DNA from: an uncultured Nitrospinaceae bacterium
GTDB lineage: Bacteria > UBA8248
Length of the DNA stretch: 64,000 bases
Direction of reading: 5' to 3'
NCBI GenBank assembly: GCA_964440505.1
Contig: CAYTSP010000257.1
Coordinates: 8,756-72,755 of the forward strand
Shown piece by piece: positions 13,543 to 41,767 of the stretch (its first letter is position 1; each line of letters begins with the position of its first letter). The notes under the pieces were generated by a model that did not search any database, had not been told where the DNA came from, and worked only from the letters and a program-made list of their open reading frames with translations. A program made the translations under genes and the position numbers.

Positions 13543-13544
13543 GC

Positions 13545-14273: not shown

Positions 14274-14386
14274 CTTTCCCCTCAACACCACAAATGCAAC
14301 ACCATGTTATATGGACGTTCCCGCCCATAGCGCCAGAATCCAGAAACACACTAATGCTCTATCATAAATCGAAATATAGGGAGAAA

Positions 14387-16306: not shown

Positions 16307-16402
16307 AATGCCTTCCTTCTTGTGCGGTTGAGCGGCTCTCTAAACCCTGAAAGCACGTTATCAGGATTTTTCTCATCCGTCTACGAGTTAAACTTCAAAT
16401 CA

Positions 16403-17887: not shown

Positions 17888-17918
17888 CTGAGATATCCTC
17901 CCCTAAGCGGCGAGGAAA

Positions 17919-17995
17919 TGGTAGCGGCGGAGGGACTTGAACCCCCAACACTACGGATATGAGCCGTATGCTCTAACCGGTTGAGCTACGCCGCC
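17919..17995 (-). tRNA. tRNA with CAU anticodon: elongator tRNA-Met or lysidine-modified tRNA-Ile2. Not an initiator.
   Basis: Hand-folded cloverleaf on the minus strand: acceptor GGCGGCG/CGCCGCU, D-stem GCUC/GAGC, anticodon stem UACGG/CCGUA with loop CUCAUAU, T-stem GGGGG/CCCUC with loop UUCAAGU, 3' CCA encoded. G1-U72 pairs and the anticodon stem lacks three G-C pairs, so it is not tRNA-fMet. The 3' end is 31 nt upstream of the tilS start, same strand. Confidence 0.85.
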
Positions 17996-18532
17996 AGAAT
18001 GCACCCCGTCAGGGAGATTGCTTGGGTCGGAATATGGCGAAAAAAAACATGGCCGAGAGAATATAGAAAAAAACCTGCATGCCAACATCTTCAAAGCGAA
18101 AACCCGCCATCAAGCACAAGTATCCCAAAAAGAGCAAGATCAGAATTTCGATTTCACGCCTCATTTGTCATTTGCTCCCCGTTCTAGGCCTTCGGACGAA
18201 GATGGTATTTCCTTCGATTGCGTTTGCTGTAATCTCAAGTCCGGTGAAAATTCCGGACAAAAAATCGCCCCGTTCGGTTCATTACGATACTTCAGGCGGC
18301 AACCCTCTCGCCAAGCACAAACAGCGCACTCGCGAACTCCCTGGTAGGCCACGCTCAAATATCTCCTTCCAAAATTCCGGCTTCACTACAGGAGCAGAAT
18401 ATAAATGCCTGGAACCGAAAACGTCAAGTTTTCTATTTTTTCGGCTTTCCCTTGCCATAACCCCAGAGCCGAACAGCACTCCATGGAAAAACCCATAAAC
18501 TGCTTCAAAACAAAACCTGAAAACCTTGCAAA

Positions 18533-20248
18533 TTAACTGCCGGATTTCATTTCTTCGGAAACCAGATTTTTCAAAAAAGCCACCGACTCGCTAATCGCTA
18601 CAAGTTGGGTCTCTCCCGTCCTTCTCGATTTTATCTCGATTTTACCTTCCTTGAGACCTCTGGGGCCGATGACCGCTTTGTAAGGGAACCCGATGAGATC
18701 GGCATCCTTGAATTTCACGCCCGGGCGCTCATCCCTGTCATCAAGTGCGACATCCAGCCCTGCGGTCCCGAGCGAGTCGTAGATGTGGTCGCAAACCTTC
18801 ATGGTTTCATCATCCACCCTCACCGGAATGATGTCCACATGATATGGAGCGATGGGAGTAGGCCAGATGATGCCGTCCTCATCATGGTTCTGCTCTATGG
18901 CCGCCGCGACTGTTCGGCCTACGCCGATGCCATAACAGCCCATGACGATAGTGTGCGTCTCGCCATTCTCGTCCTGATAGGTAGCGTCTAAAGATTCAGA
19001 ATACTTACAACCCAGCTTGAAGACATGCCCCACTTCGATGCCGCGCCTGATGCTGAGCCTCGCCTCGCATTTGGGGCAGGCATCTCCTTCCTGGGCAACA
19101 GTGAGGTCTGCAAATATGCCTGCAGCAAAGTCACGACCCTCGCGAGCGCCTGTGTAGTGATAGTCCGTTTGATTTGCCCCGACAATGAGCCCTTCGCGAT
19201 TTTCAATGCTGTAATCAGCCACAAGCCGGACATCCGACAAGCCTACCGGGCCTGCAAAGCCCACTTCAGAGTTCGTAAGCTTCTCTACCGTCTCGGCGTC
19301 GGCAAGCTCGATATCCACTGCATCAAGCGCATTTTTCAGTTTGATCTCATTTAATTCCCTGTGGCCTGGAATCATGGCGGCCACCGGCTCATCATCTGCC
19401 ATATACAAAAGAGTCTTGACCATGCGATATGGGGGAAGAGAGAAAAATTCCGCCACTTCCTCTATGGAATGAGCGCCGGGAGTATGGACTTTTTCAAGTT
19501 CGCCTCCCTCATTCTCGGGCAACTTCAAGGATACCGGCGATTTTTCCACATTCGCTGCGTACCCACACGAATCACAAACGGTGATCGCCTCCTCGCCCGT
19601 ATCGGCCATGACCATGAACTCATGCGAAAAACTCCCGCCGATGGCCCCTGAATCCGCCTCCACAGCACTGAACTTGAGTCCACAGCGCTGAAATATTCGG
19701 GTATAGGCTTGCACCATTTCTTCATAACTTTGCTCCGCGCCCGCCTCATCTCTATCAAAGCTGTAGCCGTCCTTCATCGTAAACTCTCGCCCACGCATCA
19801 CGCCGAAACGGGGCCTGATCTCGTCTCGGAATTTCGTTTGAATCTGATAGAGATTGAGCGGCAGGTCCCGATAACTCCTTACCTCGCGCGCCACCAGATC
19901 GGTGATTACCTCCTCATGCGTGGGTCCCAGACAAAAATCACGCTCATGGCGATCTTTCAAGCGGATCAATTCTTTACCGTATACTTCCCATCGTCCTGTT
20001 TTTCGCCAAAGCTCGGCAGGATTCAGCGTGGGAAGGAAAACTTCTTGCGCTTCTGCGCGATTCAACTCCTCACGCAATATCTGCTCGACCTTGCGCTGCA
20101 CGCGCACGCCGAGGGGCAAAAGCGTATATACGCCTGCCGCCAATCGGCGGATCATGCCTGAGCGCACCATAAGTTTATGGCTGACGACTTCCGCTTCGGC
20201 GGGCGCTTCTTTTAATGTGGGCAAAAAACCTCGTGAGAATCGCATCAA
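18533..20248 (-). CDS. proS: Proline--tRNA ligase
   Basis: Class II aaRS motifs, bacterial-type ProRS with an INS editing domain, 571 aa. Confidence 0.93.
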   Translation of the reverse strand: MMRFSRGFLPTLKEAPAEAEVVSHKLMVRSGMIRRLAAGVYTLLPLGVRVQRKVEQILREELNRAEAQEVFLPTLNPAELWRKTGRWEVYGKELIRLKDRHERDFCLGPTHEEVITDLVAREVRSYRDLPLNLYQIQTKFRDEIRPRFGVMRGREFTMKDGYSFDRDEAGAEQSYEEMVQAYTRIFQRCGLKFSAVEADSGAIGGSFSHEFMVMADTGEEAITVCDSCGYAANVEKSPVSLKLPENEGGELEKVHTPGAHSIEEVAEFFSLPPYRMVKTLLYMADDEPVAAMIPGHRELNEIKLKNALDAVDIELADAETVEKLTNSEVGFAGPVGLSDVRLVADYSIENREGLIVGANQTDYHYTGAREGRDFAAGIFADLTVAQEGDACPKCEARLSIRRGIEVGHVFKLGCKYSESLDATYQDENGETHTIVMGCYGIGVGRTVAAAIEQNHDEDGIIWPTPIAPYHVDIIPVRVDDETMKVCDHIYDSLGTAGLDVALDDRDERPGVKFKDADLIGFPYKAVIGPRGLKEGKIEIKSRRTGETQLVAISESVAFLKNLVSEEMKSGS

Positions 20249-20258
20249 TCAGATTTTC

Positions 20259-21503
20259 TTAGGAGTGAGTTACCTCAAATTGACCTTTTTCGTATTGCTC
20301 CGCAAGTTGCTCCACGCGTTCAACCAAGTTTTTCTTGATGTCCTCATAGGATACCAGACCTGACTTTTCACCTTTCATGAAAATCAGAGCGCGCTTATGG
20401 CCGCCGGCCACGCCGATGTCGGCATCTCTCGCCTCACCAGGACCGTTCACCTCGCAACCCATGACGGCCACTGTAATAGGTGCATCAATATGGGCAAGCT
20501 CCTGCTCTACTTCCATGGTGAGCTTATCCACGTCAATTTGAACACGTCCGCACGATGGACACGCAACAACATTCACGCCCTTTTGGCGCAACTTCAGGCT
20601 TTTCAGAATTTCGTAGCCCACGCGCACCTCTTCCACCGGATCCGCCGCCAAGGAAACGCGAATTGTGTCACCGATACCTTCCGAGAGCAGAATGCCCAGG
20701 CCGACAGAGCTTTTTATGCTGCCCGTCTGGAGGCTCCCACTCTCCGTGATGCCCAGATGGAGAGGATACTCGACGCGTTTCGCCATCAAACGATAGGCTT
20801 TTACCGTCCTCGCGACATCGGAGGCCTTCAAAGAGATCTTCGTGTCATAAAAGCTTCGCTTCTCCAGCATGGCGACATGGCGCAACCCACTCTCCACCAT
20901 CGCTTCGGGCGTTGCACCGCCGAAACGATCAAGCAGATGTTTTTCCAGGGAACCGGCGTTCACACCAACGCGGATGGGCAAGCCATTGCCTTTCGCCGCA
21001 GCGACGACTTCGCTCACCCTTTCTTCCCCGTTGATGTTGCCGGGGTTGATGCGCAGGCAATCGATCCCCGCATCCGCCGCCATCAAGGCATAGCGATAGT
21101 CGAAGTGGATATCCGCCACCAAGGGCATCTCGGTGCGTTTCCTGATTTCAGAGAGCGCATTGGCCGACTTCTCGTCAGGAACGGCCAGACGAACAATTTC
21201 ACACCCCGCAGCTTCCAGTCGCTCTATTTGGTCTACGGTCCCCTCCACATCATGCGTGTAGGTGTTGCACATCGATTGCACCACGATGGGAGCACCACCA
21301 CCGATTTTGACGCCGCGAACTTCTACTTGAGAGCTTCTTCGTCGATTGAGAGGGAACAAGGAAGGATCCGCACAAGGCAACGCCTCGGTGGTGTCATCCG
21401 CTCCAAGCACCGGCAAAGCGGCGCTGCTTTGCTCTTTAAGTGGCAGGCCAATCCCCGGTATGGGTTTGGTGTAAAACACGTCGTCCGTAAATGGCTCAAA
21501 CAA
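20259..21503 (-). CDS. ispG: 4-hydroxy-3-methylbut-2-en-1-yl diphosphate synthase (flavodoxin)
   Basis: The conserved IspG core starts at about VKIGGGAPIVVQSMCNT. C-terminal CPSCGR 4Fe-4S motif. The ORF carries about 50 non-conserved N-terminal residues, so the true start may be internal and non-ATG. Confidence 0.9.
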   Translation of the reverse strand: MFEPFTDDVFYTKPIPGIGLPLKEQSSAALPVLGADDTTEALPCADPSLFPLNRRRSSQVEVRGVKIGGGAPIVVQSMCNTYTHDVEGTVDQIERLEAAGCEIVRLAVPDEKSANALSEIRKRTEMPLVADIHFDYRYALMAADAGIDCLRINPGNINGEERVSEVVAAAKGNGLPIRVGVNAGSLEKHLLDRFGGATPEAMVESGLRHVAMLEKRSFYDTKISLKASDVARTVKAYRLMAKRVEYPLHLGITESGSLQTGSIKSSVGLGILLSEGIGDTIRVSLAADPVEEVRVGYEILKSLKLRQKGVNVVACPSCGRVQIDVDKLTMEVEQELAHIDAPITVAVMGCEVNGPGEARDADIGVAGGHKRALIFMKGEKSGLVSYEDIKKNLVERVEQLAEQYEKGQFEVTHS

Positions 21504-21514
21504 TGCACAAGCCC

Positions 21515-22711
21515 CTATTCGCTTTTTCTGCTCCCAGGAGACGATTTCGTTGCGTCCTTCATTTTCTCTACCTGCTTCTCTTGTTTCGTTATCGTTGACG
21601 ATTCACTACCGAAAAGATAATACACGCTGTCCTTATAGGTGGCAAAGATCATCAAACCGATGAGCAGAACGGTGCCGACCTGCATGGCCAACTCCCGGAC
21701 TCTCAGGCTAATAGGTTTGCCACGCAAGCCTTCAATAAGCAAGAAAAAAATATGCCCGCCATCGAGAACCGGAATTGGCAGCAAGTTCAAAATCGCCAGA
21801 TTGATGCTGAGCAAAATCGTAAACATGACAAGGTAGCGGAATCCGCGCTGCGCCTGCTCCGCGGCCACCACCGAGATACGGATCGGCCCTCCGATGTCCG
21901 CAGGAATGGTCTTCGTCAGCATCGAATACAACGTAATGACCGTTAAGCTGGCGATGCGGTAGTTTTGCTCAAAACCCTTTCCCAAAGACTCCAGGAAGCC
22001 AAAACGCTCGGTGTAGGTGCCTTGCCCGATACTGATCCCAATCCGGCCGTAACCCAGCTCTTTCCCCGTCGCGCTCTTCGATGTCGGAATGATGGGAGTT
22101 TCGAAGGATTTGCGGCCGCGCTCCACCGTCAACACAAGTTTTTTGTCGGCATTTCTTCGTATAATTTCGACAAGCTCGGACCATTTTTGAATTCGCGTCC
22201 CATCAATAGCCACGATGTGATCGCCGGTTTGAAGCTTCGCATTCTGCGCAGGCGTATCAGGTAATACACCACCTACCCACGTTCCGGGCACTGGAATCCC
22301 ACCAAGGTGCAATCCCCAACTGAGGAGTATGGCCAGGACGACATTGAACAAGGGTCCTGCCGAAATGACAGCCAATCGGTGGCTCACAGGGCGCAAGTAA
22401 AAAGATTTCTCCGGCTCATCCGGTTCTTTGGGCGCATCGGGATTATCAGGTTGCGCTTCCGGGTCTTCTCCCACGAGCTTCACATAGCCACCCAGGGGAA
22501 TCAGCGACACGCGATATTCCGTTTCTCCCCGCTGAAAACCCCAGATGCGGCGACCGAAGCCCAAAGAAAAAGTGGAAACGCCGATTTTAAGCCATTTCGC
22601 AACGAGATGATGGCCCAACTCATGGATAAAAATGAGCAACCCCAGAACCAGTACTGCCCAGAAAATCGTTTGCCCGAACCCCATCACCCAGTTTATGATT
22701 TGCATCGCCAT
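21515..22711 (-). CDS. rseP: RIP metalloprotease RseP (site-2 protease, single PDZ)
   Basis: HELGHH zinc motif in TM1, a PDZ domain, C-terminal LDGG motif. 398 aa. Confidence 0.85.
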   Translation of the reverse strand: MAMQIINWVMGFGQTIFWAVLVLGLLIFIHELGHHLVAKWLKIGVSTFSLGFGRRIWGFQRGETEYRVSLIPLGGYVKLVGEDPEAQPDNPDAPKEPDEPEKSFYLRPVSHRLAVISAGPLFNVVLAILLSWGLHLGGIPVPGTWVGGVLPDTPAQNAKLQTGDHIVAIDGTRIQKWSELVEIIRRNADKKLVLTVERGRKSFETPIIPTSKSATGKELGYGRIGISIGQGTYTERFGFLESLGKGFEQNYRIASLTVITLYSMLTKTIPADIGGPIRISVVAAEQAQRGFRYLVMFTILLSINLAILNLLPIPVLDGGHIFFLLIEGLRGKPISLRVRELAMQVGTVLLIGLMIFATYKDSVYYLFGSESSTITKQEKQVEKMKDATKSSPGSRKSE

Positions 22712-22729
22712 TCTCGAGTAAGTCCTTAT

Positions 22730-23470
22730 TTATCGCCGGCCGCTATGAGTCGGCATTTGTAGAACCTCAACATTCGGCGGCACGACAAACTGAAATTTCT
22801 CTCCTGCAATACTGACGTTTTCTTTGACATCAGAAAACCGCAAGTGGCTTGTATTGCCGATGTTGTCAATATAAGCCAAAGTGAGGATTCTGAAATTCTC
22901 AGGCTCCACCTCAACCCACATTCGGCGAAACGAGGCGCCCGCGGCCTTCGGCTCCAGGCGAATGCGGTGAGGCTGACCAGCCCTCCAGATTCCCCCGCTT
23001 CGCCTGGCGACTCCAACTTCTTCCACCGTTACATGAAAATTCTTTTTCAGATTCCCCTTGCCCGACAAGAATAACAAAGGAGTCGCACCAAACCCAGAGC
23101 CTCCGGTTTTGGAAACAATCACCTGTTTGAAGCGGACCGTGTAGAGCCAATACATGTGACCATCAGAGACCAGAACCTGCTTTTCAGGTTTGAGATACTC
23201 CATGCGTAATTTGCCGGGCTTCTTCCACGCGAAGCGCCCGCTCGACGTCGTTGTTCGCCCAAGGGATTTTAATTCATTTTTCTGTTCGAAAGAGGCTTGC
23301 AGGGATTCCAGGGCCTCATATTTTTCCTGGAGCGCCGTGACTATTTTCTCCATCTTCAGACGCGATTCTTCCACCGCAGGCGCACCAGATGCGCCCTCTT
23401 GCGAATACGCGAAAAACCCAAAAAGAAATATCAGTATCAAGAAACTCGATTTGCGCAAAACTCTCTTCAT
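22730..23470 (-). CDS. lolA: Outer-membrane lipoprotein carrier protein LolA-like
   Basis: Signal peptide (MKRVLRKSSFLILIFLFGFFA) and the LolA pattern F.Q......G.L......L....P.K.VLVSDG...WLY. The ORF track extends to 23719, but the ATG at 23470 gives a typical 246-aa precursor. Confidence 0.72.
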   Translation of the reverse strand: MKRVLRKSSFLILIFLFGFFAYSQEGASGAPAVEESRLKMEKIVTALQEKYEALESLQASFEQKNELKSLGRTTTSSGRFAWKKPGKLRMEYLKPEKQVLVSDGHMYWLYTVRFKQVIVSKTGGSGFGATPLLFLSGKGNLKKNFHVTVEEVGVARRSGGIWRAGQPHRIRLEPKAAGASFRRMWVEVEPENFRILTLAYIDNIGNTSHLRFSDVKENVSIAGEKFQFVVPPNVEVLQMPTHSGRR

Positions 23471-23483
23471 CCTTTGTGGATGA

Positions 23484-24137
23484 CTACTCCGAAACGGGCG
23501 AGATGAAACCGCGATGTTCCACAAGAGCGTCTCCTGCATATTGCACAATGCCATCAATACAGCGAACACTTCCCTCGGAGATGAGCCGCACCGCCAATGG
23601 GTATATGCGGTGCTCATAAGCGAGAATCCTCTCCGAAAGGGTATTCTCATCGTCATGAGGCAGCACCGGCACAGCGGCTTGTAAAATGATCGGCCCCGTA
23701 TCCACCCCCTCGTCCACAAAGTGGACCGTACAGCCAGTCACTCTCACACCGGCGTCCAGAGCTTTCTTTTGTGCATGCAGACCAGGGAAACTCGGCAGCA
23801 GCGAGGGATGAATATTGATGATTCTCCCTACAAAACGGCTCACGAAATCCGGCGGTAGAATACGCATAAAGCCAGCGCAACAGATGAGATCGATTTCGCA
23901 ATTTTCGATTTCATCTCCCATCCTCAGAAAAAAAGCATCGTCCTTCGGCGCGAAGTGTCGATGTCGTATTCCAGCTATCGAGGCGCGCTTGAGAGCATAC
24001 GAATTTTTTTTGTCACTCAGCACTAATACAACTTCCGCCGGAAAACCCGTTTTCTGCCCGGCATCAATGAGGGCTTGCAGGTTCGACCCGCGCCCCGAGG
24101 CCAAAACACCCACCCGTAATTGTGTTCTTGCGTTCAC
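23484..24137 (-). CDS. purN: Phosphoribosylglycinamide formyltransferase
   Basis: VLASGRGSNLQALID N-terminus and a formyl-transferase HPSLLP-type motif. 217 aa. Confidence 0.9.
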   Translation of the reverse strand: MNARTQLRVGVLASGRGSNLQALIDAGQKTGFPAEVVLVLSDKKNSYALKRASIAGIRHRHFAPKDDAFFLRMGDEIENCEIDLICCAGFMRILPPDFVSRFVGRIINIHPSLLPSFPGLHAQKKALDAGVRVTGCTVHFVDEGVDTGPIILQAAVPVLPHDDENTLSERILAYEHRIYPLAVRLISEGSVRCIDGIVQYAGDALVEHRGFISPVSE

Positions 24138-24140
24138 GAT

Positions 24141-25193
24141 TTATATGCTTTCAATGACGACGGAATGACCATCCTTTGTTTTTGAGGCGACTTCGCCGAC
24201 AACCATGGCTTGTTCTCCGGCATTTCTCAAACACTCAAGCAAATACCCCGCTCGCTCGGCCCTCGCGAGAAAGACAAAACCCAAGCCCATATTAAAAGTG
24301 CGATACATCTCCGCGCTCTCAACCGGACCGAACTCTTGAATCAACGGAAATATCTCCGGCATCTCCCACTTTTCCGGATAGAATTTAGCCTGCAATTCAT
24401 CCGGCATCACACGGCTCACATTTCCCGGAATACCACCTCCCGTGATGTGCGCGATGCCGCTTATCCCCTCTTCTCCCCGAACAGAATTAGCTCCATTGGC
24501 GTAAATCCGAGTCGGCTCCAATAAAACATTTTCAACAGGAACACCCAGCCTTTTCGTCGCAAAATCCCGTTTTCCTTTTGACTCAAATATTTTCCGCACC
24601 AAAGAATACCCGTTGCTATGAATTCCTGAAGAAGGCAGTGCGAGTATGGCGTCGCCGGCTTTCACAGGCGGTCTGTTGTCCAATTTCTTGCGTTCAACCA
24701 CCCCCACGGCAAAACCAGCGAGATCGTAAGCGCCCGGGCCATACATGTCGGGCATCTCCGCCGTCTCACCACCGACGAGGGCGCAACCTGCCTCCCGGCA
24801 ACCTTGGGCAATTCCGGATACGGCTGCCTTCAATACATTTTGCTCAATCTTGCCCGTCGCGATGTAGTCAAGAAAAAAAAGAGGTTCTGCTCCCGTGGTC
24901 AGGATGTCGTTAACACACATGGCCACCAAGTCAATCCCAACGGAATCGTGACGCTCGAACTCCTGGGCCAGGAGTAACTTCGTACCGACGCCGTCGGTGC
25001 CTGAAACGAGTACAGGATCCTCATATTCATCACCCAGGCGGAACAAACCCGCAAAATCAGCCGCCCCCTGCAGGATACGACCACTCTGGCTCTCATGAGT
25101 AGATTTAATGGCTTGGGAGATAGCGTGAACGAAGTCATCTCCCAAATGCACATCGACACCTGCGTCGCGGTATGTCAGACGATCCTCATTCAA
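24141..25193 (-). CDS. purM: Phosphoribosylformylglycinamidine cyclo-ligase (AIR synthetase)
   Basis: PurM N- and C-domain pattern (YRDAGVD, DGVGTK, GGE). 350 aa. Confidence 0.93.
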   Translation of the reverse strand: MNEDRLTYRDAGVDVHLGDDFVHAISQAIKSTHESQSGRILQGAADFAGLFRLGDEYEDPVLVSGTDGVGTKLLLAQEFERHDSVGIDLVAMCVNDILTTGAEPLFFLDYIATGKIEQNVLKAAVSGIAQGCREAGCALVGGETAEMPDMYGPGAYDLAGFAVGVVERKKLDNRPPVKAGDAILALPSSGIHSNGYSLVRKIFESKGKRDFATKRLGVPVENVLLEPTRIYANGANSVRGEEGISGIAHITGGGIPGNVSRVMPDELQAKFYPEKWEMPEIFPLIQEFGPVESAEMYRTFNMGLGFVFLARAERAGYLLECLRNAGEQAMVVGEVASKTKDGHSVVIESI

Positions 25194-25244
25194 AAGTGAT
25201 GTTCCATGATTTAGCAGGCGGAATCGCTCGGAATGAACTCAAAA

Positions 25245-27377
25245 TCAGCCATGAACTTCCATCAACTTCTTGACCAAAGCGACATTATGTCGGTGGCCAC
25301 TTCTCTCCGCGGTCACTTTCCCTCGGATAGGACGACCGGTTAAATACAGATCTCCGATAACGTCAAGAATTTTATGTCGAACGAACTCATTGGGAAATCG
25401 CAGTTGGGTATTCACGACACGCGCCTTGTCCACAAGAATCACGTTATCCCAACGACCCCCCTCGGCCAGGCCCATTTTCTCGAGCGACTCCAATTCAGAA
25501 ACAAAACCAAACGTACGAGCGGGTGCGATTTCTTCTTGAAAACTCAATGCATTCTTATGTTCATACAGATAGGATTGTTTTCCAATCGGCTCAGGATAAT
25601 CGATGAGGTATGAAACGGAAAAAGAATCCGCTGGCTCTATACGAATATAACCCTTCTCGTCGGCCGGCTCACCTATTTCGTAAACCTTATCAACCCACAA
25701 GTCTTCGCGTTTTTCCTTTTGATCCTCAATACCCGCTTCTTCAAGCAAGCGGCAAAACTCCACTGCCGAGCCATCCATGACGGGCACTTCCTCGCTCATC
25801 TTGATGAGTATATTGCTAATCTTATAAGCGTGCAGCGCGCTCATCAGATGCTCTATCGTTCGAGCCGTCACAGCTCCATTGCGCAAGTTCGTCGCATGGT
25901 TGGTACCAGCCACAAAATCGACATTCGCCCTCACAATATCGGGGCTCGTCACGCTGCCGAACTGAATCCCGCTCCCCGGCGGCAAGGGTTCAATGATTAA
26001 TCCCGTTTTCAGCCCTGAATGAAGCCCCCGACCATACAACACGACACTCTTCGAAATACTCCTTTGATTTGTTTCCCTAAGCGTCGCTGAAGCCGGTAAT
26101 ACGGGCTCTATATCGTATGCTTTAATTTTTCGCTTTAAAGCAGGCTCCGTCATACCTACAGCCTGGGCGGTTTTGTTGATATCCCAGCCGTGCTCTTCCA
26201 AATGGAAGGACAGGTATTGCCTCTCCCACTGAGTTCTGGCCACATTAAAATTGGATGGGACGTCGTCTTTTGATGTATCCGCCTCGAAATCAGAAACTTC
26301 GCGTATCGCATGCGGCAAGTGGGCGATTCGAATCTCCGATCCTTGTGATGCATATGCTGCTTTGGTCACTGCGCCTTTTAGTTCAGCTATATTGCCCGGC
26401 CAGTCATAGTCTTCTAGTAGTGCAATGACATCCTCTGAAAATTTCTTTTCATGCCTGCCAATTTCAGTGCATTCATTCAAAAACCTGTTGGCTAACGGTA
26501 GAATGTCCTCTTTTCGTTCGCGCAAAGAGGGCAAATTTATTACATCGGCGCCTATTTGGGTGGACAAGGTTCGTACGTAAGTCTTGTCTTTCGGGGTCCC
26601 CATGTGATCAAGGGACACCACCAAACGTATTGAATCCTTTGCATACCCAAGGAATCGAGCGAGAAACCTCTCACGCTCCGCCATGGGCAACTGCTCCAGA
26701 CCATCAAGATATACCGTCCCTTGAAAGGTATCGGGCACCAGCCGCTCCAGTGTCTCTTCCCATTCGTTTACCTCAGGCACCGGAAACAGAGAGCGGCAAT
26801 GAACTGGCCTAAAGCCTTCTTCTTCCTTGATACCATTCTTATGAATCACCTTTGCAATAAAACGCTTGCCGGTTCCCCTTTCGCCCGCAATCAACAAGGG
26901 GCCAATATCTTTCGCCGCCCTCCTGATAGCTCTTCGAACCCTTTGAATACTCTTGCTGGCGCCGTCAAGCATCACATCAACGACATCATTTACCTTGAAT
27001 TCCTTGGCCCTTCGCGACTGAACAGCGGAATCGACTATACGCAAAACCGCATCAATAGACAGAGGTTTTTCAATAAAATTGAAAGCGCCCAGCTTGGTTG
27101 CGGCCACCGCGGTTTCAATATTACCGTGACCAGACATCACAACGACTTCGATATCCGCGTTCGACTCCTTCACCGCTTGCAAAGTCTTGATTCCATCAAT
27201 GCCCGGCATCCACACATCAACCAAAACCACATCAGGAGTTTCAGTTCGAACCAACTGAAGGGCAGTTTCTCCAGACTCCGCCCGCTCTACACGATACCCT
27301 TCATCGTGCAAAACATCTTCCAGGCTGGCGAGTATCTCACGCTCATCATCGACGATGAGGACATGTCCCTTATCCAA
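25245..27377 (-). CDS. Fusion protein: NtrX/NtrC-family response regulator (receiver, degenerate AAA+, Fis-type HTH) joined in-frame to UDP-3-O-acyl-N-acetylglucosamine deacetylase LpxC
   Basis: A single stop-free 710-codon frame on the minus strand. Residues 1-120 form a receiver (DDE pocket, phospho-Asp in VLVDVWMPGIDG, conserved S/T and K). Residues about 135-345 are sigma-54-activator-like AAA+ (GERGTGK Walker A, RERKEDI, YDWPGN), then HTH TQWERQYLSFHLEEHGWDINKTAQAVGMTEPALKRKIK. Residues 435-710 align along the full length of LpxC (NQRSISKSVVLYGRGLHSG, TIEHLM, MDGSA, ARTFGF, FVRHKILDVIGDL, RSGH). Starts with TTG and overlaps the ntrY stop by 8 nt. Confidence 0.8.
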   Translation of the reverse strand: MDKGHVLIVDDEREILASLEDVLHDEGYRVERAESGETALQLVRTETPDVVLVDVWMPGIDGIKTLQAVKESNADIEVVVMSGHGNIETAVAATKLGAFNFIEKPLSIDAVLRIVDSAVQSRRAKEFKVNDVVDVMLDGASKSIQRVRRAIRRAAKDIGPLLIAGERGTGKRFIAKVIHKNGIKEEEGFRPVHCRSLFPVPEVNEWEETLERLVPDTFQGTVYLDGLEQLPMAERERFLARFLGYAKDSIRLVVSLDHMGTPKDKTYVRTLSTQIGADVINLPSLRERKEDILPLANRFLNECTEIGRHEKKFSEDVIALLEDYDWPGNIAELKGAVTKAAYASQGSEIRIAHLPHAIREVSDFEADTSKDDVPSNFNVARTQWERQYLSFHLEEHGWDINKTAQAVGMTEPALKRKIKAYDIEPVLPASATLRETNQRSISKSVVLYGRGLHSGLKTGLIIEPLPPGSGIQFGSVTSPDIVRANVDFVAGTNHATNLRNGAVTARTIEHLMSALHAYKISNILIKMSEEVPVMDGSAVEFCRLLEEAGIEDQKEKREDLWVDKVYEIGEPADEKGYIRIEPADSFSVSYLIDYPEPIGKQSYLYEHKNALSFQEEIAPARTFGFVSELESLEKMGLAEGGRWDNVILVDKARVVNTQLRFPNEFVRHKILDVIGDLYLTGRPIRGKVTAERSGHRHNVALVKKLMEVHG
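25248..26075 (-). other. lpxC: LpxC deacetylase domain of the fusion CDS (boundaries approximate)
   Basis: Aligns from the residue that corresponds to E. coli LpxC Met1 (here a GAA codon at 26075..26073) to the C-terminus. Zinc/catalytic residues E78-H79 (TIEHLM), H238/D242/D246 (FVRHKILDVIGDL) and H265 (RSGHRHN) are all present. Confidence 0.8.
26076..27377 (-). other. NtrX-like regulator module of the fusion CDS: receiver (about 27377..27018), AAA+ (about 26975..26342), Fis-type HTH (about 26246..26118)
   Basis: Domain order and motifs as listed for the parent CDS. The AAA+ part lacks GAFTGA and carries DG instead of DE in Walker B. Confidence 0.7.
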
Positions 27378-29634
27378 TGGAAGCCGTCCTTTCCTTTTCA
27401 GGCGTGATGTCCACAGCAGGCGCCAATGGCAACGTTACGCGAAAAACAGAACCCGCTGGATAGTTATCTCGCACGCCTATCGTTCCATTATGGTCCGCCA
27501 CAATGCGATGACATATAGCTAAACCCAACCCCGAGCCTCTGTCTTTCGTAGAAAAGTAAGGAGAGAATATATGGCCTTTCACGTCTTCCGATATACCCTG
27601 CCCCTGGTCGGCAACTTCAACGACTATCATATTTCTGTCCGCATCACTCCATGCCTGCAAATCTATCTCGCCTTCGACCTCTTGGGATTCAAAGGCATTT
27701 TCCAGCAAATTGATGAACACTCGCTGCAACTGTTCGGGATCCGCCATGACCGCTGCATTCCCTGCAGTGATTTGAATGGAAAATTCCACATTCCCTTTTC
27801 TGCCACGATATAAATTCGCAACATCTTCAATGAGGGGAGCAAACCCGCAAAGCCTCAACCTCGGCTCCGGCATTCGTGCAAACCGGCTGAATTCATTCAC
27901 CATTTCAATCAGACTCGTTACTTGATTGATAATAGTATCCGTACAAGATTCAAATACTTCCGCAAAATCATAGGCTTCACTTTCAAATTTTCTTCTCATT
28001 CTCTGAGCAGAGAGCTGAATCGGTGTAAGCGGATTTTTGATCTCATGCGCGATGCCACGAGCCACTTCTTGCCATGCGGCCACTTTTTGAGCCCGTATCA
28101 AAGCCGTCAAATCATCAAACACAATGACTGCTCCGAGCCTGCCACCATCCGCGCTTTTGAGCAGGGTCAAGCTCGCGCGTAGCGTCAGTACGCGGCCATC
28201 AATCATGATCTCCACTTGCTCCGAAGCGCTTTGGTGTTTTCGATCCCTCATTGAACGCATCAACTGACGGACGGGTTCGAGATGCGCGCTTTCGAAAACC
28301 TCGCTGAACATTCGACCCACGGCATCTTGAGGCTCAACGCTCAGCAACTCCCCAGCCGCTTTGTTGAGAATAGTAACGCGACCCCGGCGATTGATGGATA
28401 TCACACCTGCTCCGATATTTTCGAGCATCGCTTCCATATATCTGCGCCTTCTGTCGATCTCCAGGTTGGAGCGGCGCAGGGTTTCAGAAGACTCTTCGAT
28501 TTTCTCTTTGTTGGCCAATAATTCTTCTGTCATGCTGTTGAATGTGTTGACCAAAATACCTACCTCGCCATCTGCTTGCGCATCTACGCGATGTTCGAGA
28601 TCGCCATCCGACACCGCCCTTGTGGCTTCCGCCAGTTTTTCGATGGGAACCGTGATCCCGCGCGCAAGGTAGAAGCCAAACCATATGGCGGCAAACAAAA
28701 TCAGCAAGGTGACCACCAAAAAAGTGATGATGTAGTTGGCTTTAATTGGGTTCTTGGACAATTCCAACTCTTTATAATTCACGAAAGAATCGGAGATGCC
28801 CCTGATCCTCTCCACGAGCCTATCTGAAACATATTTGGATACGACGATAAACCCCACCACTTTTTTTTGAATCTTCAGAGGCGCCACGCCATAGATGACA
28901 TCGCCTTTTTCCCAGTTCTCTATACTCGAGCGCGACTCCCCATCAATCACCTGATCCACGTATCCCACCAGTGGTGAGAATGTTGCGGCTCGTTCCAACC
29001 CCGGACGATTGACCGATACGATCTCTTTTCGACCCCTATCGTAGAGTTGGATGAAGTCTACCCCCAAGCTCTTTCTCTCGGACTCTAATTTTTGTTCAAT
29101 CGCCTTGGGGTTTGCTAATATGTCGGAGTGCGACTTCTCCAACATAAGCGCTACTCTACTCGCACTGAACAGCGCGTTTCGCTCCACCTCCCGATAATAC
29201 GTTTGAGCCACCTCGAACGACCCTTTGAGCGCTCTCTCCACATTCATGTTGAACAAGGCGTTAAAGCTTTGGTTTATCAGGCCGCTGGCCACCACAAAAA
29301 GAGCCACTACAGGGATGAGCGTAAATCCGACAAAAGCCAACACGAGCTTTAATTGCAAGCGCGAACGGCCGGCGCCCGTTCTCCCCTCGTAGTAAAGACG
29401 CACCAAGTGCTTTGCCACCAAAAGAATAGCCACCATGAGCAGAATGATGCTCAGGTTCACAAGCGAAAATACAACGACGTTGTTAAGCAGGGGGACTCCC
29501 GGTTCAAGCTCCTTGAAGTAAATCCAGGCCGCGAACGAAAGAGTCGCTATGATGATCAAGGCGATGAAAGAGCGCAGAAGCGTTCTTCGTCGACGGGAAG
29601 AGATTTCCAGATTTTTCAGTCGCTTTGGATACAA
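27370..29634 (-). CDS. NtrY-like sensor histidine kinase (N-terminal multi-TM region, HAMP, PAS, HisKA, HATPase)
   Basis: 754 aa. H-box ARGIAHEIKNPLTPIQLSAQRM is the NtrY-type signature. N, G1 and G2 ATP-lid motifs. Several N-terminal TM helices. Confidence 0.85.
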   Translation of the reverse strand: MYPKRLKNLEISSRRRRTLLRSFIALIIIATLSFAAWIYFKELEPGVPLLNNVVVFSLVNLSIILLMVAILLVAKHLVRLYYEGRTGAGRSRLQLKLVLAFVGFTLIPVVALFVVASGLINQSFNALFNMNVERALKGSFEVAQTYYREVERNALFSASRVALMLEKSHSDILANPKAIEQKLESERKSLGVDFIQLYDRGRKEIVSVNRPGLERAATFSPLVGYVDQVIDGESRSSIENWEKGDVIYGVAPLKIQKKVVGFIVVSKYVSDRLVERIRGISDSFVNYKELELSKNPIKANYIITFLVVTLLILFAAIWFGFYLARGITVPIEKLAEATRAVSDGDLEHRVDAQADGEVGILVNTFNSMTEELLANKEKIEESSETLRRSNLEIDRRRRYMEAMLENIGAGVISINRRGRVTILNKAAGELLSVEPQDAVGRMFSEVFESAHLEPVRQLMRSMRDRKHQSASEQVEIMIDGRVLTLRASLTLLKSADGGRLGAVIVFDDLTALIRAQKVAAWQEVARGIAHEIKNPLTPIQLSAQRMRRKFESEAYDFAEVFESCTDTIINQVTSLIEMVNEFSRFARMPEPRLRLCGFAPLIEDVANLYRGRKGNVEFSIQITAGNAAVMADPEQLQRVFINLLENAFESQEVEGEIDLQAWSDADRNMIVVEVADQGQGISEDVKGHIFSPYFSTKDRGSGLGLAICHRIVADHNGTIGVRDNYPAGSVFRVTLPLAPAVDITPEKERTASIG

Positions 29635-29637
29635 AAT

Positions 29638-30243
29638 TCACATTCCTTTAGAGCTGAACGTCCGGGAATAGCTCCAATCAGAATTCTTCCCCCAAAAAGC
29701 GAGTAAATAATTAAAGGGAAAAACAAAATCCACATGATTCAATCGCGCTCTGATTTTGACATAATATTGACCATTGAGGGACAAAGCCTCGCCAGACAGA
29801 ATGGGTGTACCATTCAATTCACGCATCCAGTCCATCATTTCGCCCTGGCTTTTCGTCACTTTTCTTTCAATGTCTTTCGCGCCTTCTCTGAGATGAAAAG
29901 TGTATGTTTTTTTCAGGGCGCTATATTTCACTTGATGATGCAATTGCCGCGCAGAGACTTCCAGATCATAGATCAGCTTGCGAGAGCGGAGGAGACTTAC
30001 ATCAAAGATGAACTTCGTGGTCACACCGCTATGGATGGCTTCCAGAAGTTTTGGCGAAAATACGCCCAGAAGAGAACCAAAAACGAGCAACTCCCCTTTC
30101 TTTTCAACAACGACGATATCCTGTATTCGAATTCCGCCTTGGTCATCCGTTGCGGAGAGCGCCGGCCCGACCAGAAAGAAGAGCACACAAATGGCTATGC
30201 TTAATTTTCTCAGAACAAATGTTTTCTGGAAGTTAGATAACAT
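29638..30243 (-). CDS. DUF4390-like periplasmic/secreted protein, the conserved first gene of ntrYX-type operons
   Basis: 201 aa with an N-terminal hydrophobic signal. This position (4 nt upstream of ntrY) and size match the DUF4390 gene that precedes ntrY in beta-proteobacterial operons. Family assigned from memory of that context, not from a computed search. Confidence 0.5.
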   Translation of the reverse strand: MLSNFQKTFVLRKLSIAICVLFFLVGPALSATDDQGGIRIQDIVVVEKKGELLVFGSLLGVFSPKLLEAIHSGVTTKFIFDVSLLRSRKLIYDLEVSARQLHHQVKYSALKKTYTFHLREGAKDIERKVTKSQGEMMDWMRELNGTPILSGEALSLNGQYYVKIRARLNHVDFVFPFNYLLAFWGKNSDWSYSRTFSSKGM

Positions 30244-30360
30244 ATGTTCCCCTTGGCCCTTAAGTTCAATGCTACCTCATACAAGAAAAGCTCTCAATCC
30301 CTTGTTTGGCCTCTCTGCCTTCAAGGCTTCAAAAAACACATCCAGATGGCGCGCCGTGGT

Positions 30361-33057
30361 CTACATCCATTTTTTTTCCTGTTCAACGGTTTCTATGCTC
30401 TTTCGGAGTTCATACAGGGTTTCGAGAGCCTGGCGAGGTGTAATGGAATCCAGATCCAGGCCTTTCAACACCTTCTCGACTTGCGATTCCGCACGTGAAA
30501 ACAATGGCAATTGCCCATTTTCCCGGCGATTTTCCAAAAAAGATTTTTCTCCTCCGGAGCAGGACATGGCCTCCGTACTCTCAAACCTGGAGAGCAAAGT
30601 CTTCGCCCGGTCGATAACCTCTTCTGGAAGTCCCGCCAACCTGCCTACATGAATGCCGTAGCTTCTGTCGCAACTCCCATCGGTTACTTTTCGTAAAAAA
30701 ACGATTTCATCACCCCATTCTCGCACTTCGACCGCTAAATTTTTCACACAGGCGAGTTCTTTCGAAAGTTCGGCCAACTCATGATAATGGGTTGCGAACA
30801 AGGTCCTCGCCCTGTGACGAACCTCATTATGCAGATACTCTACAATTGACCAGGCAATGCTCACTCCATCGTAAGTGCTCGTGCCTCGCCCGACTTCGTC
30901 CAACACGATGAAACTCCTCTGCGTCGACTCTCTCAATATAGTGGCCGTCTCCACCATCTCGACCATGAAGGTGCTTTGCCCTTCCAAAAGTCGATCATGC
31001 GCGCCGACGCGAGTGAACACCCTGTCAACCAAACCGATTTCCGCCCTCTTGGCGGGTACGAAGCTGCCAATTTGCGCCATCAGAATGATGAGCGCCGATT
31101 GACGCAGATAAGTGGATTTCCCGGCCATATTCGGCCCTGTGACGATAAGTATTCGGCGGTCATCGCGAATCGACAAATCGTTCGGTACGAAAGAGAGGCC
31201 GGGATTCTCCGACTCCATGACGGGATGCCTGCCCTCGATGATTTCAAGATTCGTAGAATCCGTAATTTGGGGCCTCACGTATCCATTTTTACGCGCAACG
31301 AGCGCCAAGGACAAAACAGCATCAAGAATCGCTATCCTCTCCGCGGCGGCGAGTACGCGCCTGGCCTGTTTCGATATTTCGGCTCTTAAACATCCAAAAA
31401 GCATGAACTCAAGATGATGGGCTTTCTCCTCTGCTCCAAGGATGTCCTCTTCCATCTTCTTCAACTCGGAAGTGATATAGCGCTCTGCAGAAACCAGAGT
31501 CTGCTTGCGCGTATATTCTGTCGGCACCTGCTCACTGAAGCGTTTGGCTATCTCGAGATAATATCCAAAAACACGATTAAATCCGATTTTCAAAGGCAGT
31601 CCCGTTCGTTGTTTTTCCTCGCTTTCATAATTTTTCAGCCACGTATCGCCCTCTTGCTGAGCCCTTCTCAATTTTGCGAGTTCCTGATCATGCTCAGCGC
31701 GAAATATTCCTCCTTCGCGAATCGAGACAGGCGGATCATCCACAATCGCGTTCTTCAGCGCCAATGCTACGTCCTCGAGAGAATCCCACCCCGACAAGAC
31801 GGTACGAAACAACCCGGAATCCATCTCCTTTATTGCCTCAAAAACCTCTGGCAACATTCCCAAAGAAGCGCCGAGCCCCGCCAGGTCCCGGGCGTTTGCC
31901 GTTTGAGAACCCACGCGACCCAGGAGCCTTTCGATATCCTGAATAGGTTCAAGGACACTTTTGAGCATATTCAGGATTTCGGACTTATCCACGAGCTCCT
32001 GTACCGATTCGGCACGATAATCGATGGCTTTTTTTTCAATCAAAGGTGAAAGGACCCATTTTTTCAGCAGGCGTCCTCCCATGCCTGTCTGCGTCTCATC
32101 CAGCAGGCCAAACAAAGTACCTTTATTCCCGCGATCCACAGCCGAACGAGTGAGTTCTAAATTTCGTAACGTGGCGGCATCGAGAATCATGGTGTCAGAG
32201 AGTCGGGAGAAAAACACAGGTTTGATGTGGGGAAAATCGCCAGGCTGGTTTTCTTTGAGATACGCCAAAACACCTATGGCGGTATTTACCGCCACCGGAT
32301 TCGCCAGAACATTTGCTTCATTCGGAAAGACGGAGTCCAGGCTTTTGGAATCAAGCGGCTCATCAAAGGTGGCGGCTGGTCTTCTTTCAACATGGATATT
32401 CAGTTCACCCATTTTGCTTTTCAACTCATCAGACGGAGAAAATACATCCGGCAAGATGAGTTCACGAGGAGAAAGCCTCTCCAGTTGGTTGCAAATAAGC
32501 GTCTCGGCGGCATCGCCTTCCACCTGTGTCGCGCAAAACTCACCGGTCGAGCTATCGAGCCATGCCATTCCCCAAAGCGTCTTTCCTTCTCTGGCCGATA
32601 AGGTAATCCCCGCCAGGTATTGAGATTCCTTGCTATCCAGTAACTCGAGGTCGGCAATCGAAGTACCCGGAGTGAGGACGCGGGTCACCTCGCGCCTCAC
32701 AACTCCCCTGCTTTCTCCCGCATCTTCCACTTGCTCGCATATGGCGACTTTATAACCTGCCTCCAGCAATCGCCCGCAATAGGAGGATGCCGAATGACAA
32801 GGCACGCCACACATCGGTATAGGTCCCTTGTCATCGCTCTGGCGCGACGTCAGCGTGAGTTCCAGTACTTTCGCCCCGAGTTTCGCGTCTTCATAAAACA
32901 TCTCGAAAAAATCACCCAACTGAAAAAACAGCATCGCGTCCGGATAGCGTCTTTTCATTTCCAGGTATTGGCGCATCGCAGGTGATGGGCCACGGCTTTT
33001 ATTGCCCGATGTATTTTTTGCTTTCCTGGCATGCAGAGTGCTTTTTGAGGGAGGCAT
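30361..33057 (-). CDS. mutS: DNA mismatch repair protein MutS
   Basis: 898 aa. Mismatch-binding N-domain, Walker A GPNMAGKST, MutS signature STF(M/A)VEM, C-terminal HTH-like end. Confidence 0.95.
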   Translation of the reverse strand: MPPSKSTLHARKAKNTSGNKSRGPSPAMRQYLEMKRRYPDAMLFFQLGDFFEMFYEDAKLGAKVLELTLTSRQSDDKGPIPMCGVPCHSASSYCGRLLEAGYKVAICEQVEDAGESRGVVRREVTRVLTPGTSIADLELLDSKESQYLAGITLSAREGKTLWGMAWLDSSTGEFCATQVEGDAAETLICNQLERLSPRELILPDVFSPSDELKSKMGELNIHVERRPAATFDEPLDSKSLDSVFPNEANVLANPVAVNTAIGVLAYLKENQPGDFPHIKPVFFSRLSDTMILDAATLRNLELTRSAVDRGNKGTLFGLLDETQTGMGGRLLKKWVLSPLIEKKAIDYRAESVQELVDKSEILNMLKSVLEPIQDIERLLGRVGSQTANARDLAGLGASLGMLPEVFEAIKEMDSGLFRTVLSGWDSLEDVALALKNAIVDDPPVSIREGGIFRAEHDQELAKLRRAQQEGDTWLKNYESEEKQRTGLPLKIGFNRVFGYYLEIAKRFSEQVPTEYTRKQTLVSAERYITSELKKMEEDILGAEEKAHHLEFMLFGCLRAEISKQARRVLAAAERIAILDAVLSLALVARKNGYVRPQITDSTNLEIIEGRHPVMESENPGLSFVPNDLSIRDDRRILIVTGPNMAGKSTYLRQSALIILMAQIGSFVPAKRAEIGLVDRVFTRVGAHDRLLEGQSTFMVEMVETATILRESTQRSFIVLDEVGRGTSTYDGVSIAWSIVEYLHNEVRHRARTLFATHYHELAELSKELACVKNLAVEVREWGDEIVFLRKVTDGSCDRSYGIHVGRLAGLPEEVIDRAKTLLSRFESTEAMSCSGGEKSFLENRRENGQLPLFSRAESQVEKVLKGLDLDSITPRQALETLYELRKSIETVEQEKKWM

Positions 33058-33059
33058 AC

Positions 33060-33458
33060 TTACTCCGCCTTCGATTCACGGGGGGATAGGCTCATCCGGG
33101 ATTTGGAATCGGATTGCGAGGTAAGTTCATTACGCGCAGTTGTGGATTCTTCGGTCGCAGGATTTCCCATTGGGAGGAACTTGCCACTTTGCTCCCGCGC
33201 CTCATCCAGATTACTCTCCAGCGACTTGACTTCCCGCTTCAATTTCCCGATTTGGGTCCTGAACTTCAACCTGTCTAATGCGCCACCAAGCCATGCCACC
33301 ATGAACCCGCATGCAAACACGGCCAATAGAACGTAAAAAAGAGGCAAGTTGATGCTGCCTTGATAATAGGCAACAGTCACCGGCTTCATATTGATGACAC
33401 CGAAGCTCAGAATCGCCAATGACAGGATCAAACCGATGATGAGTCGAAGGCTGCCCAT
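33060..33458 (-). CDS. LapA-like (DUF1049) inner-membrane protein
   Basis: Two N-terminal TM helices followed by a coiled-coil, charged C-terminus. 132 aa, typical of the LapA/YciS family. Confidence 0.55.
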   Translation of the reverse strand: MGSLRLIIGLILSLAILSFGVINMKPVTVAYYQGSINLPLFYVLLAVFACGFMVAWLGGALDRLKFRTQIGKLKREVKSLESNLDEAREQSGKFLPMGNPATEESTTARNELTSQSDSKSRMSLSPRESKAE

Positions 33459-33652
33459 ATCACCACCAAGTCCAACGGGTTTTAGATTTCAAAATCAGGG
33501 CGGAATTGATTATAGGTCGTCTATCAATTATCGGGAATCACCCACATGCCACCGGGGGCAGGAATAAGATGATGCTCCCCTTCCCAATGAGGAACAGTGT
33601 GCATATGCAAAAGGCCGGCTATTCCTGCGCGCGTCACCCGCAATCCTGCCAC

Positions 33653-34132
33653 TCAAGGATTCCCCGGTGTTTGTCGAGACAGCCACTCCCCCTCAAGCAG
33701 ACAGGCCATCCTTTTTTCTTCCTGACTCATGCGCGCGGATTCCGACTTTGTGTCATGATCATATCCCTTGAGATGCAAAAGGCCATGCACGAGCAGACGA
33801 TCCGCCAGGACGCCGTAATCAACCGACTCCACTTGCGCTTGGCGAAGCACTTCATCCACGCAAATGACCACTTCTCCTAAAAATGTATCCCTCTCTTTTT
33901 GCTCACCCGGGGCCGGAAAGAAACCCGCCGGCGGAAAAGCCAACACATCCGTTGTTTCGTCTTCTCCCCGATATCGAGAATTCAACGCTCGCATCCTCTC
34001 GTCTCGAATGAATGCGATGCTGAACCAATCATCTTCGGACCGGAGAACTTTCCGTATGACCTCCAAGCGTTGCCTCAGCGCTTTGTGATTCAGCGTGAAT
34101 AGCTTTTGCTCGTTTTTGACGAGGACTTCCAT
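33653..34132 (-). CDS. ybeY: Endoribonuclease YbeY (rRNA maturation factor)
   Basis: Zinc motif HGLLHLKGYDH and conserved VLAFP. The ORF track starts at 34198, but the conserved N-terminus begins at MEVLV (34132). Still overlaps the upstream HD-domain gene by about 100 nt. Confidence 0.85.
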   Translation of the reverse strand: MEVLVKNEQKLFTLNHKALRQRLEVIRKVLRSEDDWFSIAFIRDERMRALNSRYRGEDETTDVLAFPPAGFFPAPGEQKERDTFLGEVVICVDEVLRQAQVESVDYGVLADRLLVHGLLHLKGYDHDTKSESARMSQEEKRMACLLEGEWLSRQTPGNP

Positions 34133-36593: not shown

Positions 36594-36614
36594 GTTACTC
36601 TTGAGAGAACTCGC

Positions 36615-37571: not shown

Positions 37572-37698
37572 AAGATCAGGCTCCCCGTATCTATATGTCT
37601 CGGCTATCTACAATCGAATTCCCATGCGCCATCAGATCGTATGCTCTAGAACTACAGGCGTCAACAAAAGAACTTTACTTTCGTTTCGCTTTTTTTCT

Positions 37699-41766: not shown

Positions 41767-41767
41767 T

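Follow-up and report, generated by a model that had tools for sequence, protein, structure and literature searches.

An NtrX-type response regulator fused to LpxC in a Nitrospinaceae bacterium suggests phosphorylation-based control of lipid A synthesis

LpxC is the committed, flux-controlling, essential and drug-targeted step of lipid A and lipopolysaccharide (LPS) synthesis. The controls described for it are proteolysis in enterobacteria, where E. coli FtsH, LapB (YciM) and YejM act on LpxC via a C-terminal degron, as well as protein partners and transcription. Here we analyze a 64,000-nt stretch of an uncultured Nitrospinaceae bacterium (assembly GCA_964440505.1, contig CAYTSP010000257.1, positions 8,756 to 72,755; hereafter, the window), in which one minus-strand gene encodes an NtrX-type response regulator and a complete LpxC as a single polypeptide. 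The fusion is real and ancient. It suggests that bacteria carrying it set outer-membrane lipid synthesis directly by phosphorylation, and not by the known transcriptional or proteolytic controls. We found no description of a receiver–LpxC or NtrX–LpxC fusion with LpxC as the output domain in the open-access PMC or bioRxiv literature.

Two-component systems described as acting on lpxC control it as a separate gene. In D. vulgaris, lpxC is the only DAP-chip (DNA affinity purification followed by chip analysis) target of DVU2934, a GAFTGA-bearing two-component regulator (PMC3333781; PMC4641369), and in D. alaskensis, a mutant of the kinase Dde_3000 upregulates lpxC alone, lpxC having a sigma-54 promoter (PMC4045070). 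The gene lpxC is the sole detected target of the two-component systems DVU2931/DVU2934 and Dde_3000/Dde_3003 (PMC3333781; PMC4045070). The Desulfovibrio regulators exert transcriptional control through a GAFTGA activator and a separate lpxC, whereas in the window the link is covalent, and both GAFTGA and the Walker B glutamate are lost. In S. fumaroxidans, lpxC is located directly upstream of the orthologous operon (PMC3333781). A link of the NtrX system to the envelope, at the level of lpxC and LPS, has been shown in R. sphaeroides, where deletion of ntrYX increases lpxC mRNA 8.8-fold and raises LPS (PMC7240162).

Alphaproteobacterial NtrX and the fusion are alike in the order of the receiver (REC), AAA+ and helix-turn-helix (HTH) domains, in the lack of the GAFTGA loop, and in the gene position directly after an NtrY-type kinase. 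The best solved-structure match is Brucella abortus NtrX (PDB 5m7n/5m7o/5m7p), which aligns end to end with fusion residues 5-421 (E 1.3e-47). However, Brucella NtrX has no enzyme attached and retains LDE in Walker B, where the fusion has LDG. The module order of Bordetella PlrP-PlrS-PlrR, that is, a DUF4390 protein, an NtrY-type kinase and an NtrX-type regulator, is the same as in the window, and a recent proposal assigns DUF4390 proteins to NtrYX-family systems as their third, periplasmic component; PlrR lacks an LpxC domain, and lpxC and LPS are unmentioned there (PMC13001219). The other known natural LpxC fusion, LpxC-FabZ (PRK13188; Bacteroidota/PVC-type), has a C-terminal metabolic enzyme as the partner and not an N-terminal signaling module. 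We rejected this type for the window protein, as no FabZ domain is present and the match to NF009667 (215 bits vs. the cutoff of 465) covers the LpxC part only.

The fusion gene is a single uninterrupted open reading frame (ORF) that starts with TTG and overlaps the stop codon of the upstream ntrY by 8 nt. It encodes, in this order, REC, a degenerate AAA+ domain, a Fis-type HTH, a flexible linker, and a complete LpxC:

25245..27377, minus strand: ntrX-like::lpxC fusion gene, 710 aa plus stop (ORF list, Pfam)
27036..27362, minus strand: REC, residues 6-114 (Pfam Response_reg, 6.9e-30)
27216..27218, minus strand: phospho-acceptor Asp54; the pocket residues D10, D11, S82 and K104 are also present
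26523..26963, minus strand: degenerate AAA+ of the sigma-54-interaction type, residues 139-285 (Pfam Sigma54_activ_2, 2.5e-10)
26865..26885, minus strand: Walker A GERGTGK, intact
26697..26714, minus strand: Walker B VYLDGL, degenerate, Glu replaced by Gly
26280..26522, minus strand: AAA+ lid, residues 286-366 (Pfam AAA_lid_14, 5.4e-21)
26115..26231, minus strand: Fis-type HTH, residues 383-421 (Pfam HTH_8, 2.8e-05, 24.2 bits vs. the cutoff of 22)
26076..26114, minus strand: HTH-LpxC linker (DIEPVLPASATLR), residues 422-434
25248..26075, minus strand: complete LpxC domain, residues 435-710 (Pfam LpxC, PF03331, 2.7e-83, residues 438-706)
25845..25859, minus strand: LpxC catalytic motif TIEHL
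25350..25379, minus strand: LpxC catalytic motif RHKILDVIGD
25284..25301, minus strand: LpxC catalytic motif SGHRHN

The preliminary description of this locus, made from the sequence alone, had quoted the junction peptide as ...GMTEPALKRKIKAYDIEPVLPASATLRETNQRSISKSVVLYGRGLHSG..., which is exactly what the minus-strand ORF encodes. It had also placed a GAA codon at the position of LpxC Met1. The alignment to E. coli LpxC bears this out, as residue 437 pairs with E. coli residue 3, and hence the Met1 equivalent is Glu435 (26075..26073). At the junction, the Pfam match to HTH_8 ends at residue 421 and that to LpxC starts at residue 438. In the AlphaFold2 (AF2) model, the final HTH helix spans residues 411-420 and the first LpxC strand residues 435-441, while the predicted local distance difference test score (pLDDT) falls below 50 at residues 426-433; the linker is predicted to be flexible or disordered. 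Its measured length up to the Met1 equivalent is 13 residues, close to the distance of about 14 residues from the HTH end given earlier, while the accompanying estimate of a linker of about 10 residues was too short.

Our comparisons support the earlier view that the gene is a genuine covalent fusion and not two overlapping genes. The identical 710-aa protein, with the same neighbors, is present in the independent Logan assembly of SRR16090826 (an exact-match search of the assemblies yielded no record for two other window proteins), and orthologues with 93-96% identity occur in numerous further assemblies, some of them on contigs as long as 3.6-4.3 Mb. Searching 5.8 billion proteins, we recovered the same architecture in >100 protein clusters at 38-96% identity, many of them on Mb-scale contigs; the named clusters belong to Nitrospinae/Nitrospinota, Tectomicrobia or Schekmanbacteria. 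In addition, we scanned one genome per species, taking 80 loci from at least 600 matching stretches. Full-length fusions were found at a minimum of 10 genome loci in several phyla; the taxa represented include Nitrospinota, Thermodesulfobacteriota and Desulfomonile. Comparison of the junction in relatives revealed no stop codon or frameshift in 120 of 120 aligned homologues, and no stop/start pair; the continuity of the reading frame is far beyond chance. The linker, 7 to 31 residues long (median 16, counted between the equivalents of Tyr421 and Gln438), differs in sequence among homologues and contains neither a conserved Met nor a stop. The NtrX-type regulator and LpxC hence form one polypeptide. 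Public annotations name such proteins simply LpxC or NtrX.

The regulator half is NtrX-like, but it is not a strict NtrX equivalog: the equivalog family NF051870 is the best NCBIfam match, yet it scores 246 bits against the cutoff of 600. In the receiver, all of 28 diverse fusions share D10, D11, D54 and K104, and these residues are retained in the shorter forms from other phyla described below. The match of the AAA+ domain to Pfam Sigma54_activat spans only positions 3-60 of 168. Walker A is intact, and therefore nucleotide binding may persist. Walker B of 73 scorable long fusions reads D-G in 54, D-D in 16, and D-E in three. Neither the window protein nor any of the 103 long fusions has a GAFTGA-like motif. 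The window protein thus lacks both hallmarks of sigma-54 enhancer-binding proteins, the GAFTGA loop and the catalytic Walker B hhhhDE, and, to judge from these motifs, its AAA+ domain has lost the means to activate sigma-54. GAFTGA was probably lost independently of the loss in alphaproteobacteria, since the closest unfused relatives of the regulator are GAFTGA-bearing regulators of the deltaproteobacterial/Acidobacteriota type. The HTH, modeled as helices 377-395, 400-407 and 411-420, aligns with the C-terminal HTH of Brucella NtrX (5m7n) to its last residues, and is retained in 101 of 103-104 long sequences.

In the LpxC half, the match to PF03331 covers profile positions 1-267 of 268 (280 bits vs. 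the cutoff of 27), and TIGR00325 scores 238 bits against the cutoff of 187.25. The LpxC part of the AF2 model superimposes on A. aeolicus LpxC (1yh8) with a template modeling (TM) score of 0.94 (target-normalized), a root-mean-square deviation of 1.7 Å and 35% identity. All three catalytic motifs align to their P. aeruginosa counterparts. In E. coli numbering, the zinc ligands of LpxC are His79, His238 and Asp242, and the catalytic residues are Glu78 and His265. Residues E509, H510, H668, K669, D672, D676, H695, T622 and F623 of the window protein are invariant in 28 fusions, and E509, H510, H668, D672 and H695 are also kept in the short forms. As the catalytic residues are conserved, the LpxC domain is probably active. 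The alignment to E. coli LpxC stops at residue 274 of 305, six residues short of the fusion C-terminus. Since the fusion ends 4-6 residues past the LpxC core, the tail carrying the FtsH degron is absent. No second lpxC was found by tblastn within the window.

To place the fusion among other LpxCs, the LpxC domain alone was used as a query against 1.84 billion representatives, yielding 8456 LpxCs. Among these, the ∼45 top scorers (≥233 bits) are nearly all N-terminally extended, while those below are nearly all stand-alone. In a neighbor-joining tree, the extended LpxCs all fall into one clade, in which long and short forms are interleaved, and this suggests a single origin of receiver-tethered LpxCs followed by repeated loss of the middle domains. 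The forms include REC-AAA-HTH-LpxC of about 700-770 aa, REC-AAA-LpxC without the HTH (P0134), REC-HTH-LpxC (P0128, P0136), and REC-LpxC of about 420-460 aa from Deltaproteobacteria, Thermoanaerobaculia, Holophagae, Terriglobia, Binataceae and Thermodesulfovibrionia. A close Nitrospinota relative with 76% identity (P0053) carries a deletion of AAA+ and of most of its HTH. The short forms retain the phospho-acceptor and the catalytic residues. Mean identity in the family is 67% for REC and 63% for LpxC, as compared to 48% for the HTH, 44% for the lid, 36% for AAA+, and 21% for the linker. The receiver and LpxC are thus the conserved ends of the protein, and the domains between them degenerate or disappear.

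In the window, the fusion is the last gene of an operon that starts with a gene for a DUF4390 protein followed by ntrY:

27370..29634, minus strand: NtrY-type sensor histidine kinase (Pfam NtrY_N, HAMP, PAS, HisKA, HATPase_c)
29638..30243, minus strand: DUF4390 periplasmic protein (PlrP-like), first operon gene (Pfam DUF4390, 4.9e-26)
30269..30297, minus strand: candidate sigma-70-type promoter TTGAGA-17-TAGCAT (consensus scan; weak)

Gene order and domain content pair the fusion, as cognate regulator, with the neighboring NtrY-type membrane kinase and its DUF4390 partner. A full-length NtrY homologue is also encoded directly upstream of the long fusion at four other loci (L001-L004) and of the short REC-LpxC at seven (L010, L013, L018, L022, L023, L025 and L026).

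Two further observations concern the short forms. In those of Acidobacteriota (L016, L017, L019, L020, L021, L024 and L031), a conserved proline-rich motif, PPPxLPLLR-like, is situated ∼10 residues before the QRT of LpxC; the REC-LpxC linker is otherwise variable. In a Holophagales metagenome-assembled genome (MAG; L017, 8250..12761), a histidine kinase gene is followed by an ORF whose product begins with a receiver-like part and ends in an LTXXQ/CpxP-Spy-like region, and then by REC-LpxC; this gene order is a possible further tie of receiver-LpxC to envelope-stress sensing.

The unfused relatives suggest what the circuit looked like before the fusion. GAFTGA was found in 37 of the 46 unfused, NtrY-partnered regulators that the genome scan recovered, several of the misses being wrong ORF picks in high-GC loci, and Walker B LDE is kept in most. 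At L041, the tblastn hits suggested a partial fusion, but the locus encodes an ordinary GAFTGA-bearing regulator. At 13 unfused loci, the genes are arranged on one strand in the order lpxC-(DUF4390)-ntrY-ntrX; a Syntrophobacterales locus (L066) has the same arrangement as S. fumaroxidans. Upstream of lpxC, 11 of these 13 loci carry a TGGYAY-N5-TTGCT-like site of the sigma-54 (-24/-12) type, against a background of 0.07 sites per 430 nt and one in seven stand-alone lpxC controls. Seven sites are located 30-50 nt before the start codon (L027, L035, L038, L048, L049, L058 and L066; e.g., TGGCACCTCCGTTGCT and TGGTATGGTTATTGCT), and those at L077, L044, L029 and L030 are less clear. The regulator encoded next to these lpxC genes retains GAFTGA. 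By contrast, the 31 upstream regions of fused loci contain no canonical sigma-54 site, and no sigma-54-like -24/-12 element was found upstream of the operon in the window. On this promoter and gene-order evidence, the lpxC circuit published for Desulfovibrio only extends to Syntrophales, Acidobacteriota, Rokubacteria and other MAGs. A stand-alone lpxC of a Nitrospirota MAG (L078, 5782) has a canonical sigma-54-like element, TGGCATAGGGATTGCT, at -108, and the contig retrieved carries no ntrYX; regulation of lpxC through sigma-54 may extend beyond the syntenic loci.

We consider it fairly probable, from these comparisons, that an NtrYX-type system which once controlled lpxC at the level of transcription now controls the enzyme directly by phosphorylation. 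The ancestral circuit would have run from NtrY through NtrX and sigma-54 to lpxC transcription, and fusion of the regulator to its own target would have shifted the control to the protein level. In the present form, NtrY would respond to an envelope signal by setting the phosphorylation state of Asp54, and this would tune LpxC activity in a CheB-like manner, through intramolecular occlusion that is imposed or relieved, or through a change in the oligomeric state. Such control would replace the enterobacterial proteolysis by FtsH/LapB; in the long form, the HTH may still contribute transcriptional control. The arrangement has precedents in the CheB methylesterase, the PleD and WspR diguanylate cyclases, and the HD-GYP protein RpfG, where, as in the fusion, a receiver is flexibly tethered to an enzyme and works with a histidine kinase. 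The features of enzymatic response regulators, namely the acidic pocket, the phospho-acceptor Asp, Ser/Lys, and a cognate histidine kinase, are all found in the window. The short REC-LpxC has exactly the two-domain plan of these regulators, while the long form of the window keeps AAA+ and HTH in between.

More tentatively, and with some doubt, we suggest that the envelope sensor NtrY, together with the DUF4390 protein, phosphorylates a receiver that gates LpxC catalysis directly, and that lipid A/LPS homeostasis is both the ancestral and the core task of the widespread NtrYX/PlrSR family. The last point follows from reading the fusion by the "Rosetta stone" logic. The signal that the DUF4390 protein and NtrY perceive at the inner membrane might then be LPS or an intermediate of lipid A.

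Several points weigh against phospho-control of LpxC. The proposed effect of phosphorylation on LpxC activity is deduced from comparative evidence. AF2 yields no inter-domain contacts: the predicted TM score of the long form is 0.58, the linkers are flexible and no REC-LpxC interface is defined, and the model of the short REC-LpxC is poor (pLDDT 68, from an 11-sequence alignment). The short forms of Acidobacteriota are orphans with no adjoining kinase gene. The LpxC tree is distance-based and carries no support values. The orthology of DVU2934/DVU2931 to the NtrX/NtrY pair is deduced from the matching gene order of S. fumaroxidans and the Syntrophobacterales locus. Finally, a second, housekeeping lpxC may exist beyond the window.

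Among the other explanations, the simplest is a sequencing or assembly error that deleted a stop/start pair between two genes. We found nothing in favor of it at this locus, though such errors do occur in these data: P0273 (277 aa, from the 93%-identity cluster of P0008), considered as a free LpxC, is actually an N-terminal fusion fragment whose tail is frameshifted (..SAQNRR), encoded on a contig of 1.45 Mb, that is, an assembly error in a relative and not a split gene. The recurrence of the protein in an independent assembly, in many further assemblies and in clusters down to 38% identity leaves this explanation a negligible probability, and we reject it. The fusion could also be only nominal, if a free LpxC of ∼30 kDa arose by internal initiation or by cleavage of the linker, whose predicted disorder would suit the latter. 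The claim of the preliminary description that no usable start for a free LpxC exists holds in part. On the one hand, ATG at Met409 (26153..26151), in frame and within the HTH, would retain the entire LpxC. On the other hand, no candidate has an unusual Shine-Dalgarno (SD) sequence. We scored anti-SD pairing for all in-frame ATG, GTG and TTG codons at residues 370-475 against 1143 internal in-frame start-like codons of the window genes, and the duplex energies of ATG409, GTG446 and TTG447 (-2.7, -5.9 and -3.2 kcal/mol) are ordinary, at the 62nd, 22nd and 51st percentiles, respectively. GTG446 (26042) and TTG447 (26039) are both downstream of QRSISKSV, and starting there would remove the first beta-strand. 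The AAGGAG within the QRS codons, 16 nt upstream of GTG446, speaks for initiation at that codon, but it is not kept in orthologues with 85-86% identity (L001, L002). In a few homologues, Met directly precedes QKT at the exact position of LpxC Met1, as in P0092 and in a full-length fusion of Thermodesulfobacteriota (L004, around 5100; ATG, junction ..KRLMQKTLKRS..), and this Met may be what is left of the original lpxC start, or else an internal start particular to the lineage. Still, linker Met residues are sporadic, being found in 12 of 101 sequences and at differing positions. Moreover, a consensus scan found no promoter-like site upstream of the junction, and long-term retention of the frame across phyla would be unexpected if the halves worked apart. 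We therefore reject an internal start and regard a separately made LpxC as very unlikely.

If the fusion is accepted as functional, its purpose could still be co-expression or stoichiometry, with LpxC being constitutive and REC-AAA-HTH acting as a separate transcription factor that, for example, autoregulates the operon; phosphorylation would then alter no more than the amount of LpxC produced. The transcriptional nature of the ancestral circuit, the HTH kept by most long forms, and the flexible linkers with no predicted interface are all consistent with this. However, the DNA-binding and AAA+ parts have been deleted repeatedly, while the receiver with its intact phospho-acceptor is always kept beside LpxC, and these two regions are the most conserved ones. 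A receiver that has LpxC as its sole output would serve no purpose unless it acted on the enzyme; the retention of REC and LpxC upon the loss of the middle indirectly supports an effect of phosphorylation on the enzyme, and we consider a mere co-expression device unlikely. The reverse relationship would make the LpxC domain a sensor of UDP-3-O-acyl-GlcNAc or acyl chains that tunes NtrX, with another lpxC supplying the enzyme. Enzyme-derived sensor domains do occur in other regulators, and the additional lpxC might lie beyond the window, which itself holds none. Yet the zinc ligands and catalytic residues are all invariant throughout the clade, and the short forms have no DNA-binding output, making a sensor role highly improbable, slightly more so than a free LpxC.

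The surroundings of the operon are mostly housekeeping genes. The fusion is followed by purM, purN, lolA, rseP, ispG and proS, and throughout the window (1..64000) the minus strand carries nearly every long ORF with a family match, forming a long co-oriented stretch that includes FtsH, TilS, ProS, IspG, RseP, LolA, PurN, PurM, MutS, YbeY, PhoH, MurJ, HolA, RibBA, riboflavin synthase, RibD, PpdK, GlyS, and aspartokinase. The mechanical call of the LolA ORF (22730..23719, minus strand; 329 aa) overlaps purN, with the LolA domain at residues 137-311; its true start is probably internal, as calls of orthologous genes are 215-246 aa long. A 132-aa membrane ORF (33060..33458, minus strand) adjoins mutS, and its orthologue at L082 is annotated with a LapA (LPS assembly protein A) domain. 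The FtsH gene (14387..16306, minus strand) is ∼9 kb downstream of the fusion. We saw no LapB-like gene between the LapA-domain ORF and the FtsH gene, and no evidence that the FtsH and LapA-domain genes of the window act on the fusion.

If phospho-control of LpxC is true, it would be a further mode of LpxC control, exerted by a two-component system with the enzyme itself as the output. The attached receiver is conserved across Nitrospinota, Tectomicrobia, Thermodesulfobacteriota, Acidobacteriota, Binatia and others, and the gradation of forms, with full-length ones at one end and REC-only ones at the other, clearly illustrates how in nature a regulator became joined to its own target gene and afterwards discarded the transcription machinery. 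The fusion, the gene order and the sigma-54 promoters of lpxC would provide concordant, independent evolutionary evidence for the purpose of the NtrYX family. This bears on the signal and the key targets of NtrYX/PlrSR in Alpha- and Betaproteobacteria, including the pathogens Brucella and Bordetella.

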